Virus genome (UHGV): UHGV-0141345
Origin: a virus
DNA length: 16,168 bases
Reading direction: 5' to 3' (one strand)
The number at the start of each line of letters is the position of its first letter. Position 1 is the first letter of the stretch. Below the pieces are notes generated by a model. It made no database searches and had not been told where the DNA came from. It worked only from the letters and a program-made list of their open reading frames with translations. A program made the position numbers and the translations under genes. Below are positions 2,245-7,157 of this stretch, in pieces.

Positions 2245-3240
2245 GTGACCGTGAGAGCACTACTGACCCCTGAAATTGCCCCGCGTATGGGGATCGTATT
2301 GTTCAGGCCAGGTTCAGAGCTGATGCCCCTGTTTATGCAGGGGCGTGTCCTGCTGGAGCCTGAGCCGGAACGTTATTCATCTTTCGCCAGTGGTGCCGTT
2401 CCGGCGGCATCACAACCGCTGGCGGATGATCCTGCCGTTCGGGCCGTGTTCCGCAATGAGGAAGTGATCCGTCGTGCTGGTGGCGTGGAATGTCTTGAAA
2501 GCTGGTTACTTCGTGAAAAAGGCTGCCAGTGGCCTCATTCCGACTGGCACAGCGAGAACATGACAACAATGCGACACGCGCCGGGCGCAATCCGTCTGTG
2601 CTGGCACTGCGATAACCAGCTGCGCGATCAGTTCACGGAACGGCTGGAATCAATGGCAACGGATAACTGTGCCCGCTGGGTGTTGTCTGTTGTGCGTCGG
2701 GATCTCGGTTTTGATGATAGTCACGTTGTGACAATGCCGGAACTGTGCTGGTGGCTGATTCGTAATGACCTGGCGGATGCCTTACCGGAAAGTGCAGCCC
2801 GTAAGGCACTGAGATTACCGAAGCCTGTTGTGCCGTCTGTCACCCGGGAAAGTGACCTTGTGCCTTCGGTTCCTGCCACCAGCATCATCCAGGATAAGGC
2901 GAAAAAGGTGCTGGCGCTGAAAGTGGATCCGGAGTCGCCGGAGTCTTTTATGTTACGCCCAAAACGTCGCCGCTGGGTTAATGAAAAGTACACACGCTGG
3001 GTTAAGACACAGCCGTGTGCATGTTGTGGAAAGCCTGCTGATGATCCCCACCACCTGATAGGCCACGGTCAGGGGGGAATGGGTACAAAAGCGCATGACC
3101 TCTTTGTGTTGCCTTTGTGCAGAAAGCATCACGACGAGCTGCATGCGGATACCGTGGCATTTGAAGAGAAGTATGGCTCCCAGCTGGAGCTGATATTTCG
3201 TTTTATCGATCGTGCGCTGGCAATTGGCGTGCTGGCCTGA
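2245..3240 (+). CDS. DUF968-like phage protein with C-terminal Cys/His (HNH-like) metal-binding cluster
   Basis: 331 aa ORF starting at GTG 2245 directly after the upstream stop; start uncertain (in-frame ATG at 2287). C-terminal CACCGKP...HHLIGHG...H[12 protein letters not shown] motif. Sits immediately upstream of Q, as DUF968 genes do in E. coli lambdoid prophages. Confidence 0.7.
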
Positions 3241-3257: not shown

Positions 3258-3623
3258 ATGCGTGATATTCAAATGGTTCTTGAACGTTGGGGGGCATGGG
3301 TGGCAAATAATCACGAGGATGTCACCTGGTCGTCTATTGCTGCAGGATTTAAAGGACTAATCCCTTCAAAAGTAAAATCCCGCCCGCAATGTTGTGACGA
3401 TGATGCGATGATCATTTGTGGGTGCATGGCTCGCCTGAAAAAGAACAACAGCGATTTGCACGATTTATTAGTGGATTATTATGTAGGTGGTATGACGTTT
3501 ATGGCGCTTGCCCGTAAACATGGGCGTTCTGATTGCTGGGTTGGGCGTTTATTGCAAAAGGCTGAAGGTGTAGTTGATGGCATGTTAATGATGTTAGAAA
3601 TTGAGCTAGAGATGGATCGTTAG
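3258..3623 (+). CDS. Late-gene antitermination protein Q (short Q-like, Phage_antitermQ family, QuuD-type)
   Basis: Start at ATG 3258 with GGAG 7 nt upstream (the track ORF begins at TTG 3243). 121 aa with Cys-rich segment ([16 protein letters not shown]). Position immediately upstream of the lysis region. Confidence 0.8.
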
Positions 3624-3665
3624 AAGACCTCTTATTGAGGGGGTAATTGAATCAGTTTAATGTGT

Positions 3666-3700
3666 GGGGAGTCGATTTATTCTCCCCATTTTATTTAATT
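3666..3700 (+). terminator. Putative rho-independent terminator downstream of Q
   Basis: Stem GGGGAG (3666-3671) / CTCCCC (3682-3687) with 10-nt loop, followed by ATTTTATTTAATT. The tail is U-rich only on the + strand. Lies between convergent genes Q (+) and the lipoprotein gene (-). Confidence 0.4.
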
Positions 3701-3707
3701 AATTTAC

Positions 3708-4154
3708 TTAAGGTTTTAATTCATCAAGACGTTGTTGGATAGTGTTTTTGCTTGCGTTGTCTGTTATAGCCATTTGTTGTACTTGCCCCATTGCCATTTG
3801 AGTTTCCATCCACATATCGGCCCACACTTTTGTATCGTTATTAACTTGAGCGATAGTAAATCTGACTTTTGATACCGGGGTTGTTGAATAGGCATTGCCG
3901 ATTAACATTTGTCCAAAAACAGCAGAGCCGCCTTCCAGTTCTTTACCACATATAACACTGCTGTTATCCGCGTTGTAAATTATCAACCCTCTACTATTGC
4001 AGTAATTCACAAGGGCATCTTTGACTTTATCTTTTGTCATATTTTGATAAACCCCCTCAGGTTTTCCTGATTGAGTTTTCTTTATCAATGGTACGGAAGA
4101 AGTACAACCTGAAATGATAGTTGCGCTAAGTAATAGTACAGTCATTTTATTCAT
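3708..4154 (-). CDS. Hypothetical lipoprotein (accessory gene convergent with Q)
   Basis: 148 aa. N-terminus MNKMTVLLLSATIISGC has a signal peptide and lipobox (ISG|C). The gene and surroundings are visibly AT-rich relative to flanking phage genes. No family recognised. Confidence 0.65.
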   Translation of the reverse strand: MNKMTVLLLSATIISGCTSSVPLIKKTQSGKPEGVYQNMTKDKVKDALVNYCNSRGLIIYNADNSSVICGKELEGGSAVFGQMLIGNAYSTTPVSKVRFTIAQVNNDTKVWADMWMETQMAMGQVQQMAITDNASKNTIQQRLDELKP

Positions 4155-4182
4155 GTTTCTTATCCATTGTTAAGGGCATACC

Positions 4183-4216
4183 CACACAATTATTTTTATT
4201 GGAGATGAATAATCAA
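4183..4216 (-). promoter_or_regulatory. Candidate sigma70 promoter for the lipoprotein gene
   Basis: On the - strand: -35 TTGATT (complement of 4211-4216), 16-bp spacer, -10 AATAAT (complement of 4189-4194), about 30 nt upstream of the ATG at 4154. Prediction by eye only. Confidence 0.3.
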
Positions 4217-4277
4217 CCGTTTACAATCGTAAAAAATCAAATATGCTGTTAAGAGTGGTTACTTCGCCACACAACTT

Positions 4278-4302
4278 AAACCCGCCGCTGAGCGGTTTTT
4301 TT
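4278..4302 (+). terminator. Putative rho-independent terminator (possibly tR'-like)
   Basis: Short GC stem CCGC(4285-4288)/GCGG(4292-4295) with 3-nt loop followed by T7 (4296-4302). Weak stem, strong U-tract. Confidence 0.35.
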
Positions 4303-4424
4303 GTACCTGTAAACTTGGTGCAGTACAGTAAACACGCTGGTGGTCGTGAATACTGACTTTTTATCTTGCTGGCTTTTTAGACAAGAGTTATTGGTATGTC
4401 ATGTTAACCAGAAGGGGAAAAGAC

Positions 4425-4628
4425 ATGCTAAAACAGCAAGATATGACAGAAACCGCCGCCGCAGTCCTTCATTTCTTACCTGCTGACAAGTGGGTAACGC
4501 CACGCATGATGACGAGAACTACCGGAGTAAGCGAAGCCCGGTGCCAGTTAATACTGACCCAGTTAGTTCTGGCGGGTCTGGCGAAGGGTAACGGCGGGTA
4601 CGGGAATAAATTCAGACGCTGCCAGTAA
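4425..4628 (+). CDS. Small winged-helix DNA-binding protein, tentatively FaeA/PapI-like
   Basis: 67 aa from ATG 4425, with SD-like AAGGGGA (4412-4418) 6 nt upstream (track ORF begins at ATG 4401, which lacks an SD). Pattern VLHFL...VT...GVSEAR-QLILTQLVLAGLA...GG resembles small wHTH regulators of the PapI/FaeA type. Assignment from pattern memory only. Confidence 0.45.
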   Translation: MLKQQDMTETAAAVLHFLPADKWVTPRMMTRTTGVSEARCQLILTQLVLAGLAKGNGGYGNKFRRCQ

Positions 4629-4778
4629 TGGCGGTTTCCTGCTGTGAAAATGGGCGGCTGGTGGGTGTTGGTAGCACCTGCCAGCCATTCGCTCATGCTT
4701 ACTGGTCACAAGCGAACCACGGCCCACTGCTTTAGCGCAAAAGCAGAGTGAGCCTACCAGAGTTACGCTTACTGATCC

Positions 4779-5831
4779 ATGAAAAACACTGTAAAAATAA
4801 ACAGTGTTGATTTAATCAACGCTGATTGCCTGCATTTTATTCAGTCCCTGCCTGATGATTCCATTGACCTGATTGTTACCGATCCGCCGTACTTCAAGGT
4901 GAAACCCAACGGCTGGGACAATCAGTGGAAAGGGGACGAAGATTACCTTAAGTGGCTGGATCACTGTCTGGCCCAGTTCTGGCGGGTGTTAAAACCTGCT
5001 GGAAGCCTTTACCTGTTCTGTGGGCATCGCCTGGCATCTGATATTGAGATCATGATGCGTGAACGTTTCAACGTGCTTAACCATATCATCTGGGCGAAGC
5101 CGTCCGGACGTTGGAATGGGTGTAATAAAGAAAGTCTGCGCGCATATTTTCCTGCCACAGAGCGCGTTCTGTTTGCTGAACATTACCAGGGGCCATATCG
5201 CGGCAAAAGTGACGGCTATGCGGCAAAAGAAAGGGAACTCAAACAGCACATAATGGCACCGCTGATATCGTATTTCAGGGATGCTCGTGCCGAACTGGGT
5301 ATAACGGCAAAACAAATTGCCGAAGCCACAGGTAAGAAAAATATGGTTTCCCACTGGTTTGGTGCCAGTCAGTGGCAGTTGCCGAATGAGGCTGACTATC
5401 GGAAGTTACAGGCACTGTTTTCCCGTATAGCGGCAGAGAAGTTTCAGGAACAACAACTGGAACAACCACACCACCAGCTGGTGGCATCTTATGATTCACT
5501 GAATCGCAAATATTCTGAATTGCTGGATGAGTTTAAATCTCTCCGGCGCTATTTCTCCGTATCAGTCTCCGTGCCTTATACCGATGTCTGGACGCATAAG
5601 CCCGTTCAGTTCTACCCGGGTAAACATCCGTGCGAGAAACCGGCGGATATGCTCCGGCAAATAATCAATGCCAGTAGTCGACCTGGTGATCTGGTTGCTG
5701 ATTTCTTTATGGGATCCGGTTCCACAATAAAAGCGGCAATGGCGCTGGGGCGTCAGGCGTTAGGTGTTGAACTTGAGTCAGAGCGGTTTAATCAGACGGT
5801 GAAAGAGGTAAGTGAACTGGTGGGGAAATAA
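4779..5831 (+). CDS. Beta-class DNA amino-methyltransferase (N6_N4_Mtase-like; probably N6-adenine), orphan
   Basis: 350 aa. Motif IV DPPY near the N-terminus (TDPPYF) and motif I FxGSGST near the C-terminus (FFMGSGSTIKAA), the beta-class order with a central target-recognition region. DPPY rather than SPPF favours N6-adenine. No restriction endonuclease gene is adjacent. Confidence 0.85.
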   Translation: MKNTVKINSVDLINADCLHFIQSLPDDSIDLIVTDPPYFKVKPNGWDNQWKGDEDYLKWLDHCLAQFWRVLKPAGSLYLFCGHRLASDIEIMMRERFNVLNHIIWAKPSGRWNGCNKESLRAYFPATERVLFAEHYQGPYRGKSDGYAAKERELKQHIMAPLISYFRDARAELGITAKQIAEATGKKNMVSHWFGASQWQLPNEADYRKLQALFSRIAAEKFQEQQLEQPHHQLVASYDSLNRKYSELLDEFKSLRRYFSVSVSVPYTDVWTHKPVQFYPGKHPCEKPADMLRQIINASSRPGDLVADFFMGSGSTIKAAMALGRQALGVELESERFNQTVKEVSELVGK

Positions 5832-5836
5832 TTCTG

Positions 5837-5864
5837 GTGGCCACGTTGCGTGGCCTTTTTATTT
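5837..5864 (+). terminator. Rho-independent terminator after the methyltransferase
   Basis: Perfect 7-bp stem GGCCACG (5839-5845) / CGTGGCC (5849-5855) with loop TTG, followed by TTTTTATTT. Confidence 0.6.
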
Positions 5865-5907
5865 CCAACACAGCACCCGCAAATATCGCGAGGTGAGAGA
5901 TGACGAA

Positions 5908-6243
5908 ATGCCTCATAACCCAAATACATGGCCGGACTGGCTGGAGTTGTTTCAGAGCTGGTGGCGTGGAGACACACCGCTTGGTGCAGTGATTATGTCG
6001 ATCGTTATGGCTGGTTTGCGCATCGCCTATTTTGGCGGTGGTGGTGGCTGGAAGCGAAAAACGCTCGAGATTTTGCTATGTGGCGCTCTGACGCTGACCT
6101 TTGCATCCGCTCTTGAGTATGTCGGATGGCCTAAATCGCTTTCTGTTGCCATTGGTGGTGGCGTGGGGCTGATCGGTGTCGATGCTATTCGTGGGGCTGC
6201 AATGCGAGTAATCGGTAACAAATTTGGTAGCTCGAAGGAGTAA
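5908..6243 (+). CDS. S: Holin, lambda S family (class I)
   Basis: 111 aa from ATG 5908 with SD AGGTGAGAG (5891-5899). The C-terminal two-thirds resemble lambda S (AY-G---GG-----T-------C; SL-VAIGGGVGLIGVDAI). The N-terminus differs from lambda S and has no Met-Lys-Met dual-start motif. Directly precedes R. Confidence 0.8.
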   Translation: MPHNPNTWPDWLELFQSWWRGDTPLGAVIMSIVMAGLRIAYFGGGGGWKRKTLEILLCGALTLTFASALEYVGWPKSLSVAIGGGVGLIGVDAIRGAAMRVIGNKFGSSKE

Positions 6244-6246
6244 TTT

Positions 6247-6723
6247 ATGCAGGCACTAAATTCCCAGCGTAAAGCTTTCCTGGATATGGTGGCATGGTCA
6301 GAAGGAACGGATAACGGACGGCAGAAAACCAGAAATCATGGTTATGACGTCATTGTAGGCGGAGAGCTATTTACTGATTACTCCGATCACCCTCGCAAGC
6401 TTGTCACGCTAAACCCCAAACTCAAATCAACAGCAGCCGGACGTTATCAGCTTCTTTCACGCTGGTGGGATGCTTACCGTAAGCAGCTTGGCCTGAAAGA
6501 CTTCTCCCCCAAAAGCCAGGACGCAGTGGCATTGCAGCAGATTAAAGAACGTGGCGCTTTACCGATGATTGATCGCGGTGATATCCGTCAGGCAATCGAC
6601 CGTTGCAGCAATATCTGGGCTTCACTGCCGGGGGCTGGTTATGGTCAGTTCGAGCATAAGGCTGACAACCTGATTGCAAAATTCAAAGAAGCTGGCGGAA
6701 TGGTCAGAGAGATTGAGGTATGA
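6247..6723 (+). CDS. R: Endolysin R (lytic transglycosylase), near-identical to lambda R
   Basis: 158 aa; from residue ~5 onward matches my recollection of lambda R almost exactly ([46 protein letters not shown]...). SD AAGGAG upstream. Confidence 0.95.
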
Positions 6724-7157
6724 GCAGAGTAACCGCGATTATCTCCGCTCTGGTTATCTGCATCATCGTCTGCCTGTCGTGGGCGGTCAATCATTACCGT
6801 GATAACGCCATGACCTACAAAGAGCAGCGCGATAAAGCCACATCCATCATCGCTGATATGCAGAAGCGTCAACGTGATGTAGCAGAACTCGACGCCAGAT
6901 ACACAAAGGAGCTTGCTGATGCTAACGCGACTATCGAAAGTCTCCGTGCTGATGTTTCTGCTGGTCGTAAGCGCCTGCAAGTCGCCGCCACCTGTGCAAA
7001 GTCAACGACCGGAGCCAGCGGCATGGGCGATGGAGAAAGCCCAAGACTTACAGCAGATGCTGAACTCAATTATTACCGTCTCCGAAGTGGAATCGACAAG
7101 ATAACCGCGCAGGTTAACTACCTGCAGGAGTACATCAGGACGCAATGCCTGAAATAA
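6720..7157 (+). CDS. Rz: Spanin inner-membrane subunit Rz
   Basis: 145 aa; N-terminus [30 protein letters not shown] matches lambda Rz. Start overlaps the R stop (ATGA). Confidence 0.9.
6919..7104 (+). CDS. Rz1: Spanin outer-membrane lipoprotein Rz1, embedded in the +1 frame of Rz
   Basis: 61 aa from ATG 6919. Signal peptide with lipobox (VVSAC) followed by a Pro-rich segment ([13 protein letters not shown]). Entirely nested inside Rz, as in lambda. Confidence 0.75.

Follow-up and report, generated by a model that had tools for sequence, protein, structure and literature searches.

A lipoprotein gene cassette between the antiterminator gene Q and the predicted late promoter of a lambdoid Escherichia coli prophage

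The question raised by the locus

Where does late transcription start in a prophage whose antiterminator gene Q is followed at once by an antisense lipoprotein gene, and what may such a gene be doing there? Both questions are raised by the UHGV virus genome UHGV-0141345, a stretch of 16,168 nucleotides (the window, as the whole analysed DNA is called here) that is part of a lambdoid Escherichia coli prophage and shows 100% identity to strain RL465 (NZ_LT594504). An earlier note on this DNA had placed a lipoprotein gene of 148 amino acids (aa) on the minus strand directly after Q, had considered that it displaces the late promoter pR', and had left it unclear where Q-dependent transcription starts. 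The best overall explanation, which is considered probable, is a self-contained moron cassette at a recombination hotspot between the stop codon of Q and the -35 hexamer of pR'.

The cassette and its borders

The cassette and the elements it contains are the following.

3624-4219: AT-rich cargo cassette (moron) of 596 bp, from the Q stop codon to the -35 hexamer of pR'
3666-3705, plus strand: hairpin GGGGAG-N10-CTCCCC with a T-rich run behind it, predicted to act as an intrinsic terminator of rightward (early/Q) transcription, found by terminator scan
3708-4154, minus strand: lipoprotein gene, 148 aa, phrog_3152, supported by translation, homologues and purifying selection
4104-4154, minus strand: signal peptide and lipobox I-S-G-C (Cys17), from the translation
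4216-4189, minus strand: candidate sigma-70 promoter of the lipoprotein gene, with TTGATT at 4216-4211, a spacer of 16 nt and AATAAT at 4194-4189, found by consensus scan with 9/12 matches

The guanine-plus-cytosine (GC) content is 36.7% in the cassette and 37.8% in the lipoprotein open reading frame (ORF), as opposed to 54.0% in the remaining window. The AT-rich character described in the earlier note is thus real, and the base composition deviates as is expected of a moron. The borders are given by relatives of two kinds. Loci with a Q of the same class and other cargo (L029, L074 and the prophage DLP12 of E. coli K-12) diverge from the window right after the Q stop codon and rejoin it exactly between the G at 4219 and the TTTAC that starts at 4220. 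In cargo-free relatives, the late promoter is found 3-9 nt past the Q stop codon, which confirms these borders. Cargo-free loci include the Shiga-toxin phage 1720a-02, E. coli and Shigella loci and representatives of Trabulsiella, Pantoea, Xenorhabdus, Providencia and Photorhabdus (L133-134, L139-141, L144-154 and L164). In phage 1720a-02, the Q stop codon is followed by 7 nt and then by TTAGCG-cggtccgcaaaaagtatgtcagtat-GTTAAGAGTGGTTACTTCGCCACACAGCTTAAACCCGCCGCGAGCGGGTTTTTTT, and the Trabulsiella locus reads TAA-aaaaag-TTTACG-tacgtaaaaaacagaa-TACTCT-gttaagAgtgg. On the strength of the same-class and the cargo-free comparisons together, 3624-4219 is an insertion or replacement cassette, flanked by elements that adjoin one another in relatives. 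The lipoprotein gene does therefore lie where the late promoter would otherwise adjoin Q, as the promoter does in the annotated phage 21.

The hairpin at 3666-3705 has a predicted folding energy of -13.2 kcal/mol for its RNA, with z = -3.3 on the plus strand versus z = -1.7 on the minus strand, where the hairpin (3666-3687) comes after the lipoprotein stop codon and lacks a U-tract. Judged from these features, it would terminate in the plus direction only and would halt early transcription leaving Q unless this is antiterminated. Other cassettes found at the Q junction likewise open with a hairpin or a (bidirectional) terminator directly after Q. At the opposite end, the candidate lipoprotein promoter falls inside the cassette. 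It stands divergent and back-to-back with pR' (4189-4225), with 3 bp between both -35 hexamers, and the two promoters might interfere with or depend on one another.

Of 5426 complete E. coli genomes, 185 contain the entire cassette; its carriers were obtained from humans, pigs, chickens and water. Two phages that have been isolated, PhiR40_1 and PhiR55_1, show 99.3% identity over the region.

The predicted late promoter beyond the cassette

The promoter-like and terminator-like strings quoted in the earlier note were all recovered where it had placed them, on both strands. Two regions had been offered there for the late promoter, one at ~3634-3661 just after the Q stop codon and the other at 4220-4247, followed by a terminator at 4278-4302. 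The elements that compose the second region are as follows.

4220-4247, plus strand: predicted late promoter pR', with -35 TTTACA at 4220-4225, a 16-nt spacer and -10 TATGCT at 4242-4247, from scan, conservation and phage 21 geometry
4220-4236, plus strand: candidate Q-binding element, the palindrome TTTAC-AATC-GTAAA and an A-tract over the -35 and the spacer, from co-variation with Q class
4248-4277, plus strand: discriminator and initial transcribed region GTTAAGAGTGGTTACTTCGCCACACAACTT, with a predicted start at A4254, from conservation, -10 position and phage 21 geometry
4278-4302, plus strand: tR'-like intrinsic terminator, a short GC hairpin followed by T7, from scan and fold

This block is orthologous to the block that directly follows Q in 1720a-02, Trabulsiella, Pantoea and Xenorhabdus. 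It combines a sigma-70 promoter with an intrinsic terminator within ~50 nt, upstream of the lysis genes, an arrangement of the Q21 type that is conserved across genera. At the -10, the T, the A and the final T of TAnnnT are invariant in 26 diverse loci from ~15 genera, and the motif G[AT]TAAGAGTG, also conserved across genera, spans the predicted start, as do TAAGAG/AAGAGT at 4250-4256, the bases conserved best in the block. From there to the terminator, the leader measures ~49 nt, compared with 50 nt in phage 21. A single copy of the element TTTACnnnnGTAAAAA is found in the window, versus 0.04 occurrences expected by chance. In phages Ayreon and SfV, where no more than the terminator part (4278-4302) is shared, this element bears the annotation 'terminator', and other genera have a hairpin and T-run of different sequence at the same distance.

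Pairing of Q classes with promoter palindromes

The upstream half of the block varies with Q. A set of 120 loci was gathered from IMG/VR by an exact 26-nt match to the leader, so that leader conservation in this set is by construction. A second set, free of this bias, was gathered via the Q protein with one genome per species. In the first set, a gene of the Q21 family precedes the block in nearly all loci with enough upstream sequence (109 of 126, reference loci included). Clustering at 70% identity divides these Q proteins into four groups, each of which goes with its own palindrome over the -35 and the spacer. The pairing holds in 108 IMG/VR loci: TGTTATAACA is found with one Q cluster in 12/12 loci, TTTAC-N4-GTAAA in 17/17, GCGTACGC in 38/38 and GCGGTCCGC in 41/42. 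The same pairing is observed in the species-representative set (8/8, 10/10 and 5/5, for 23 loci, plus one TGTAATTACA variant).

Such a correlation could arise from the co-inheritance of neighbours alone. Cassettes lying between Q and the palindrome have, however, been exchanged repeatedly, with 4 types in the class of the window and ~13 and 7 in two others. As the pairing has been maintained despite these exchanges, the palindrome is put forward as the Q-binding element; the support is good, though indirect, binding itself being deduced from co-variation. In Morganella and some Pantoea loci (L151, L153, L156), the palindrome overlaps the end of the Q frame, with the stop codon lying within GTAA, and Q is there physically fused to its own presumed target site.

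Competing placements of the late promoter

Another geometry for the same block appears improbable. In it, TAnnnT at 4242-4247 would be a sigma-dependent pause element, the real -10 would be TAAAAA at 4230-4235 and transcription would start near 4241. TATGCT does resemble the phage 21 pause element TAAGCT, the GTTAAGAGTGGTTAC that follows resembles GCCGTTAGTGAC of phage 21, and under the main model no -10-like element is seen past A4254. However, many loci have T4 in place of the A-tract (CGCATTTT), which destroys the proposed -10, and the matching -35, which would come to lie within Q or the variable cassette, is unconserved. Conservation starts instead at a TTTAC[AG] or [CT]TAACG hexamer, located 16-18 nt from TAnnnT, which is the proper distance for a -35. 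A -10 sought within the A-tract, or as TATTGT 5 nt upstream, was likewise set aside, being unconserved across classes.

The first region proposed earlier, 3634-3661, with the 4220-4302 block reduced to a separate short transcription unit, is hardly credible as the late promoter: nothing except its position directly after Q speaks for it, whereas 3624-3707 is cassette DNA shared neither by same-class loci with other cargo nor by cargo-free loci, the scan gave no promoter-like match there, a plus-strand terminator and an antisense gene come immediately after, and the block that co-varies with Q is the one at 4220.

Several observations nonetheless weigh against the assignment of pR' to 4220-4247. 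The start at 4254 is predicted by geometry only. No -10-like pause element was found downstream of it in the 26 aligned sequences. Neither are there two direct 8-bp repeats of the phage 21 type between the -35 and the -10, a palindrome being present here. With these points taken into account, 4220-4247 and 4278-4302 are, on comparative grounds, identified as the predicted pR' and tR' of this prophage, intact and 596 bp from Q. The structural and promoter part of the explanation is held with high confidence, and the uncertainty expressed in the earlier note is settled at the level of the promoter, which has merely been moved away from Q.

Some features of the leader were recorded in addition. 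TAAGAG/AAGAGT, the only -10-like strings noted in this part, resemble the element TAAGCT of phage 21 and AACGAT of lambda, and the lambda pR' leader AACGATGGGTTAATTCGC resembles AAGAGTGG-TTACTTCGC of the window. An inverted repeat GTGGT-N6-GCCAC is present in the leader, with 88.5% of cells paired over the 26 sequences and one co-varying pair only. An identity with the pR' leader of phage 82 (GCC at +15-17, T at +25) was considered and dropped, as Q belongs to the Q21 family and the pause element of phage 82 does not fit TTACTT/TACTTC. A full-text literature search with the leader sequence returned nothing relevant. On the minus strand, 4270-4406 gave a sub-threshold Rfam match to STnc130, a Salmonella small RNA (26 bits versus a gathering threshold of 55, E 0.27), which is probably due to chance.

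The lipoprotein gene and its product

The minus-strand gene, which converges on Q, encodes a protein starting with MNKMTVLLLSATIISGC. Its signal peptide, MNK-MTVLLLSATI-ISGC, has the positive n-region, the hydrophobic core and the lipobox of a lipoprotein. The lipobox [LVI][STVA][GA]C is kept in 21/21 aligned homologues, and the lipid-attachment Cys plus 24 further positions are invariant in this alignment. Cys17 is followed by Thr-Ser, with no Asp, and by the '+2 rule' of the Lol system the lipoprotein is predicted to be sorted to the outer membrane. An AlphaFold model (predicted local distance difference test, pLDDT, 85; predicted template modelling score, pTM, 0.75) shows a linker of ~15 residues past the lipidated Cys, followed by a compact alpha/beta domain of a generic, helix-grip-like kind.

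A word-indexed search retrieved 31 close homologues, from Escherichia, Shigella, Salmonella, Jejubacter, Citrobacter, Xenorhabdus, Morganella, Enterobacter and Phytobacter, and a profile search over 1.84 billion representatives yielded 823 at E <= 1e-3, including 408 at E <= 1e-10. Compared with the Salmonella, Jejubacter and Phytobacter copies, the proportion of synonymous differences (pS) is 0.61-0.85, near saturation, and that of nonsynonymous differences (pN) 0.08-0.32; where the synonymous rate (dS) is unsaturated, the ratio of nonsynonymous to synonymous rates (dN/dS) is 0.07 and 0.22. As judged from this conservation, the ORF is a genuine gene under purifying selection, which bears out the earlier reading of the translation. 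That it is a chance frame in an AT-rich spacer, as might be suggested by its annotation as a 'hypothetical protein' only and its weak ribosome-binding site, has a negligible probability in view of hundreds of homologues with conserved motifs, strong purifying selection and a confident fold prediction.

The homology and structure searches proposed in the earlier note thus delivered relatives and a confident fold; the kinship with Bor, Cor or Llp that it had evoked by analogy did not materialize, neither sequence nor fold similarity to the Bor/Iss, Cor and Llp families being found. The name 'VirB7' given in UniRef to a Xenorhabdus homologue was rejected as evidence, this label being driven by the lipobox.

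Close homologues are prophage-borne in every case, at varied positions. In Salmonella, Jejubacter, Citrobacter and Kluyvera prophages, they are located on the sense strand between tail genes K and I/J and share 48-72% identity, and the Phytobacter homologue lies in the nin region. Three homologue groups (L128, L129 and L216-L218 among the loci) stand between the lambdoid tail genes K and I. Such varied positions indicate that the gene travels among phage sites as a unit. It is present in 2 of 50,697 phage records. The domain family at large (823 representatives at 50% clustering) has no Pfam model. A C-terminal PDZ domain occurs in ~15 of 63 sampled distant relatives, and single distant members (among P0046-P0193) carry TPR/YfiO or SH3 domains. 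The PDZ fusions point to a periplasmic protein-binding module, as far as domain architecture can tell.

The junction as a slot for cargo

The interval from the Q stop codon to the GTTAAGAG block was compared in L003, L005 and L006-L126. Within the IMG/VR loci, cargo is absent only in Shiga-toxin phages resembling 1720a-02, where 27-38 nt separate the Q stop codon from the conserved leader. Every other locus has cargo of 0.5-3.8 kb; at least 25 types of cassette are represented, nearly all of them lying on the strand opposite to the late operon. The species-representative set divides into 8 loci free of cargo, one with 167 nt and 15 with 1.1-2.9 kb.

When the cargo was scanned with PADLOC, 8 of 19 proteins matched defence models. 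These include KwaB of Kiwa (E 2e-150), with its membrane partner adjoining, and PDC-S20 (E 3e-177), as well as PDC-S60, PDC-M53A, an HNH nuclease (PDC-M68A), NsnA/PD-T4-2_A beside a C5-methyltransferase and a HEC-04/ATPase-Toprim protein. Most of the remaining scanned cargo had no Pfam match. Many junction cassettes are composed of two genes, for a soluble and a multi-pass membrane protein, with neither a Pfam nor a PADLOC match.

The porin genes nmpC and lc represent a classical case at this junction. No description of the Q/pR' junction as a hotspot, nor of the pR' of DLP12, was found in the literature, the coverage of which was incomplete. The general phenomenon of morons and of P2/P4 hotspots has long been known (PMC9122126, PMC9519451).

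What the lipoprotein may do

In the proposed explanation, the cassette would bring in a hairpin or terminator after Q, one antisense lipoprotein gene and the candidate promoter of that gene. Q would act in trans on the RNA polymerase at pR', for which reason the 596-bp separation from its promoter should not matter; isolated phages with the exact same arrangement are viable. The lysogen would produce the lipoprotein from the minus-strand promoter at 4216-4189. The protein would then be exported, lipidated at Cys17 and placed in the inner leaflet of the outer membrane, and its helix-grip-like domain, held on the linker of ~15 residues, would act on an envelope component.

The likeliest role, offered tentatively, would be a surface function of benefit to the prophage, such as phage exclusion or receptor masking. 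This idea stems from position, namely from the defence-rich slot occupied here and from the proximity to tail-tip genes elsewhere. Several findings have to be set against it. The Shine-Dalgarno sequence of the gene is weak, and its promoter matches the consensus at just 9 of 12 positions, expression from it being predicted. No Pfam, NCBIfam or PADLOC 2.0 model matches the lipoprotein, and no function is known for phrog_3152. The domain has many relatives that are apparently chromosomal, some of them PDZ-fused, and the ancestral role was therefore probably not phage-specific. Finally, when the receptor-binding C-termini of the J proteins of three homologue-carrying prophages were compared with that of the J of this prophage, none was shared, which lends no support to the notion that the lipoprotein blocks the receptor of its own phage.

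The lipoprotein could alternatively be a factor of host interaction or fitness, be it in serum resistance in the manner of Bor/Iss, in adhesion or in envelope stress, without any effect on phages. This is regarded as unlikely. It would agree with an outer-membrane-type lipoprotein that is divergent from the late genes, as bor is, with the presence at the DLP12 junction of the porin gene nmpC and of no defence system, with the lack of a PADLOC match for the lipoprotein and with carriers coming from humans, pigs, chickens and water. On the other hand, the protein resembles neither Bor/Iss nor any Pfam family, 8 of the 19 other cargo proteins scanned match defence models, and no enrichment in pathogens was seen.

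A part in the lytic cycle, by shielding progeny from the debris of lysed cells or by aiding tail-tip or lysis functions, rather than in lysogenic conversion, is quite unlikely. The homologues with 48-72% identity that prophages of four genera have between K and I/J, in the sense orientation within the late tail operon, would fit such a part. In the window, however, the gene is antisense with its own promoter, so that transcription dependent on Q would run against it. A further homologue is found in the early nin region. Most lambdoid phages do without the gene, which is present in only 2 of 50,697 phage records.

Gene context of the prophage

The genes that surround the Q/pR' junction in the window are listed below.

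1434-2243: KilA-N gene
2245-3240: DUF968 gene, the upstream neighbour of Q
3258-3623, plus strand: Q, late antiterminator gene, 121 aa, Q21 family (PF06530, E 2e-51)
4425-7157, plus strand: start of the late operon, predicted to be under pR'/Q control, from annotation and family matches
4425-4628, plus strand: small ORF, phrog_331, with no function assigned
4779-5831, plus strand: DNA methyltransferase of the N6/N4 type, 350 aa
5908-6243, plus strand: holin
6247-6723, plus strand: endolysin
6720-7157, plus strand: Rz

Terminase and head genes come after the lysis genes. Besides its PF06530 membership, which places the late regulatory unit with those of the Q21 type, the Q protein has a distant match to the phage 21 Q structures 6p18/6jnx (E 7.5e-9) and an identity of 85% to QuuD of E. 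coli K-12 DLP12; RefSeq annotates it as an 'antiterminator Q family protein'. In KF030445 and LR595868, the label 'antitermination protein Q' is given to the DUF968/HNH-like gene at 2245-3240 (also L002 509-1498 and L003 1-99), which looks like an annotation error inherited from the neighbour. According to the annotation of RL465, a second, earlier adenine methyltransferase is present in the 19-705 region. Between the terminator and the end of the N6/N4 methyltransferase gene, the DNA forms a module that is 98% identical to that of phages with an unrelated Q (mEp460, cdtI, Ayreon and Stx2c phages). A copy of the region in E. coli SCU-306 (L214, NZ_CP053231 4124925-4128518) is 93% identical, and all its genes bear a frameshift flag; the lipoprotein ORF is among them and is unannotated there. 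Either this prophage is decaying or the assembly is of low quality.

Comparison with known systems

The closest parallel is DLP12 of E. coli K-12, in which the order is the same: quuD, the antisense nmpC, the promoter block and essD-rrrD-rzpD. DLP12 resembles the window by a Q that is 85% identical, by an antisense outer-membrane cargo before the same block GTTTACGTACGTAAAAAATTGGTTATGCTGTTAAGAGTGGTTACTTCGTCACACAGCTTAAACCCGCCG and by identical palindrome arms, TTTAC and GTAAA. Its cargo is different, as a porin gene interrupted by IS5 makes up 2.9 kb in DLP12, whereas the window carries a lipoprotein gene. In phage PA-2, the related porin gene lc presumably lies at the equivalent place.

In phage 21, whose record is annotated from experiments, the Q stop codon is followed after 6 nt by the -35 TTGACA, the Q-binding element (QBE), the -10, a start 7 nt on and the terminator. 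The window shares with it the PF06530 family of Q, the order, the spacing and a leader of ~50 nt (structures 6P18/6P19; 10.1101/651190). Both systems differ in several respects: the Q proteins are only ~30% identical; the QBE of phage 21 consists of two direct 8-bp repeats (ATTGAGCA, AATGAGCA) in the spacer, whereas the window has a palindrome over the -35; a -10-like pause element stands at +2 in phage 21 and none is evident past the predicted start in the window; and no cargo separates Q from pR' in phage 21.

The bor gene of lambda is a classic moron or lysogenic-conversion gene, expressed in the lysogen. Lambda Bor and K-12 BorD resemble the case described here in that they are small lipoproteins whose genes lie close to the lysis genes, on the strand opposite to the late operon. 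There is, however, no sequence similarity (Pfam), and bor is located downstream of the lysis genes rather than between Q and pR'; borD of K-12 is likewise antisense and stands after the lysis genes. Llp of T5 and Cor of phi80, N15 and T1 are phage lipoproteins that block FhuA, the receptor of the phage itself. They are small, phage-borne lipoproteins of the outer membrane, as that of the window is predicted to be, and their genes often lie beside receptor-binding tail genes, as do those of several homologues. By contrast, no sequence or fold relation is detectable, the window protein is about twice as long, and the carriers of the window lipoprotein share no receptor-binding domain.

With known cargo hotspots of phages, the Q/pR' junction has in common a fixed site and alternative, mostly lysogen-expressed cassettes that include defence systems (here Kiwa, PDC-S20, PDC-S60 and restriction-modification-like genes); it differs by the phage group and by the junction itself. 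A bolder composite view has a rather low probability. It holds that the Q/pR' junction of Q21-family lambdoid phages is a widespread defence and conversion hotspot, undescribed as far as could be found, that the lipoprotein founds a new family of exclusion factors borne by phages and located in the outer membrane, and that this Q subfamily would read a class-specific palindrome at the -35, without a canonical downstream pause element, and would load onto RNA polymerase unlike Q of lambda and Q21.

Significance

The late promoter and terminator can now be placed in a common type of E. coli prophage, in which the distance from Q to its promoter is evidently unconstrained. In kind, the lipoprotein cassette is a typical moron at a busy cargo slot, and the hotspot and the Q-palindrome pairing are more interesting by-products than the cassette itself. 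The junction offers a ready catalogue of cargo, in which known defence systems stand next to many uncharacterized one- or two-gene cassettes, and it may serve as a practical hunting ground for novel functions in defence or conversion, with the lipoprotein as one candidate. The four Q classes and their four palindromes provide a testable specificity code for this Q subfamily, to which QuuD of K-12 and the Q of certain Shiga-toxin phages of the 1720a-02 type belong; in these phages, toxin output is governed by Q and pR'.

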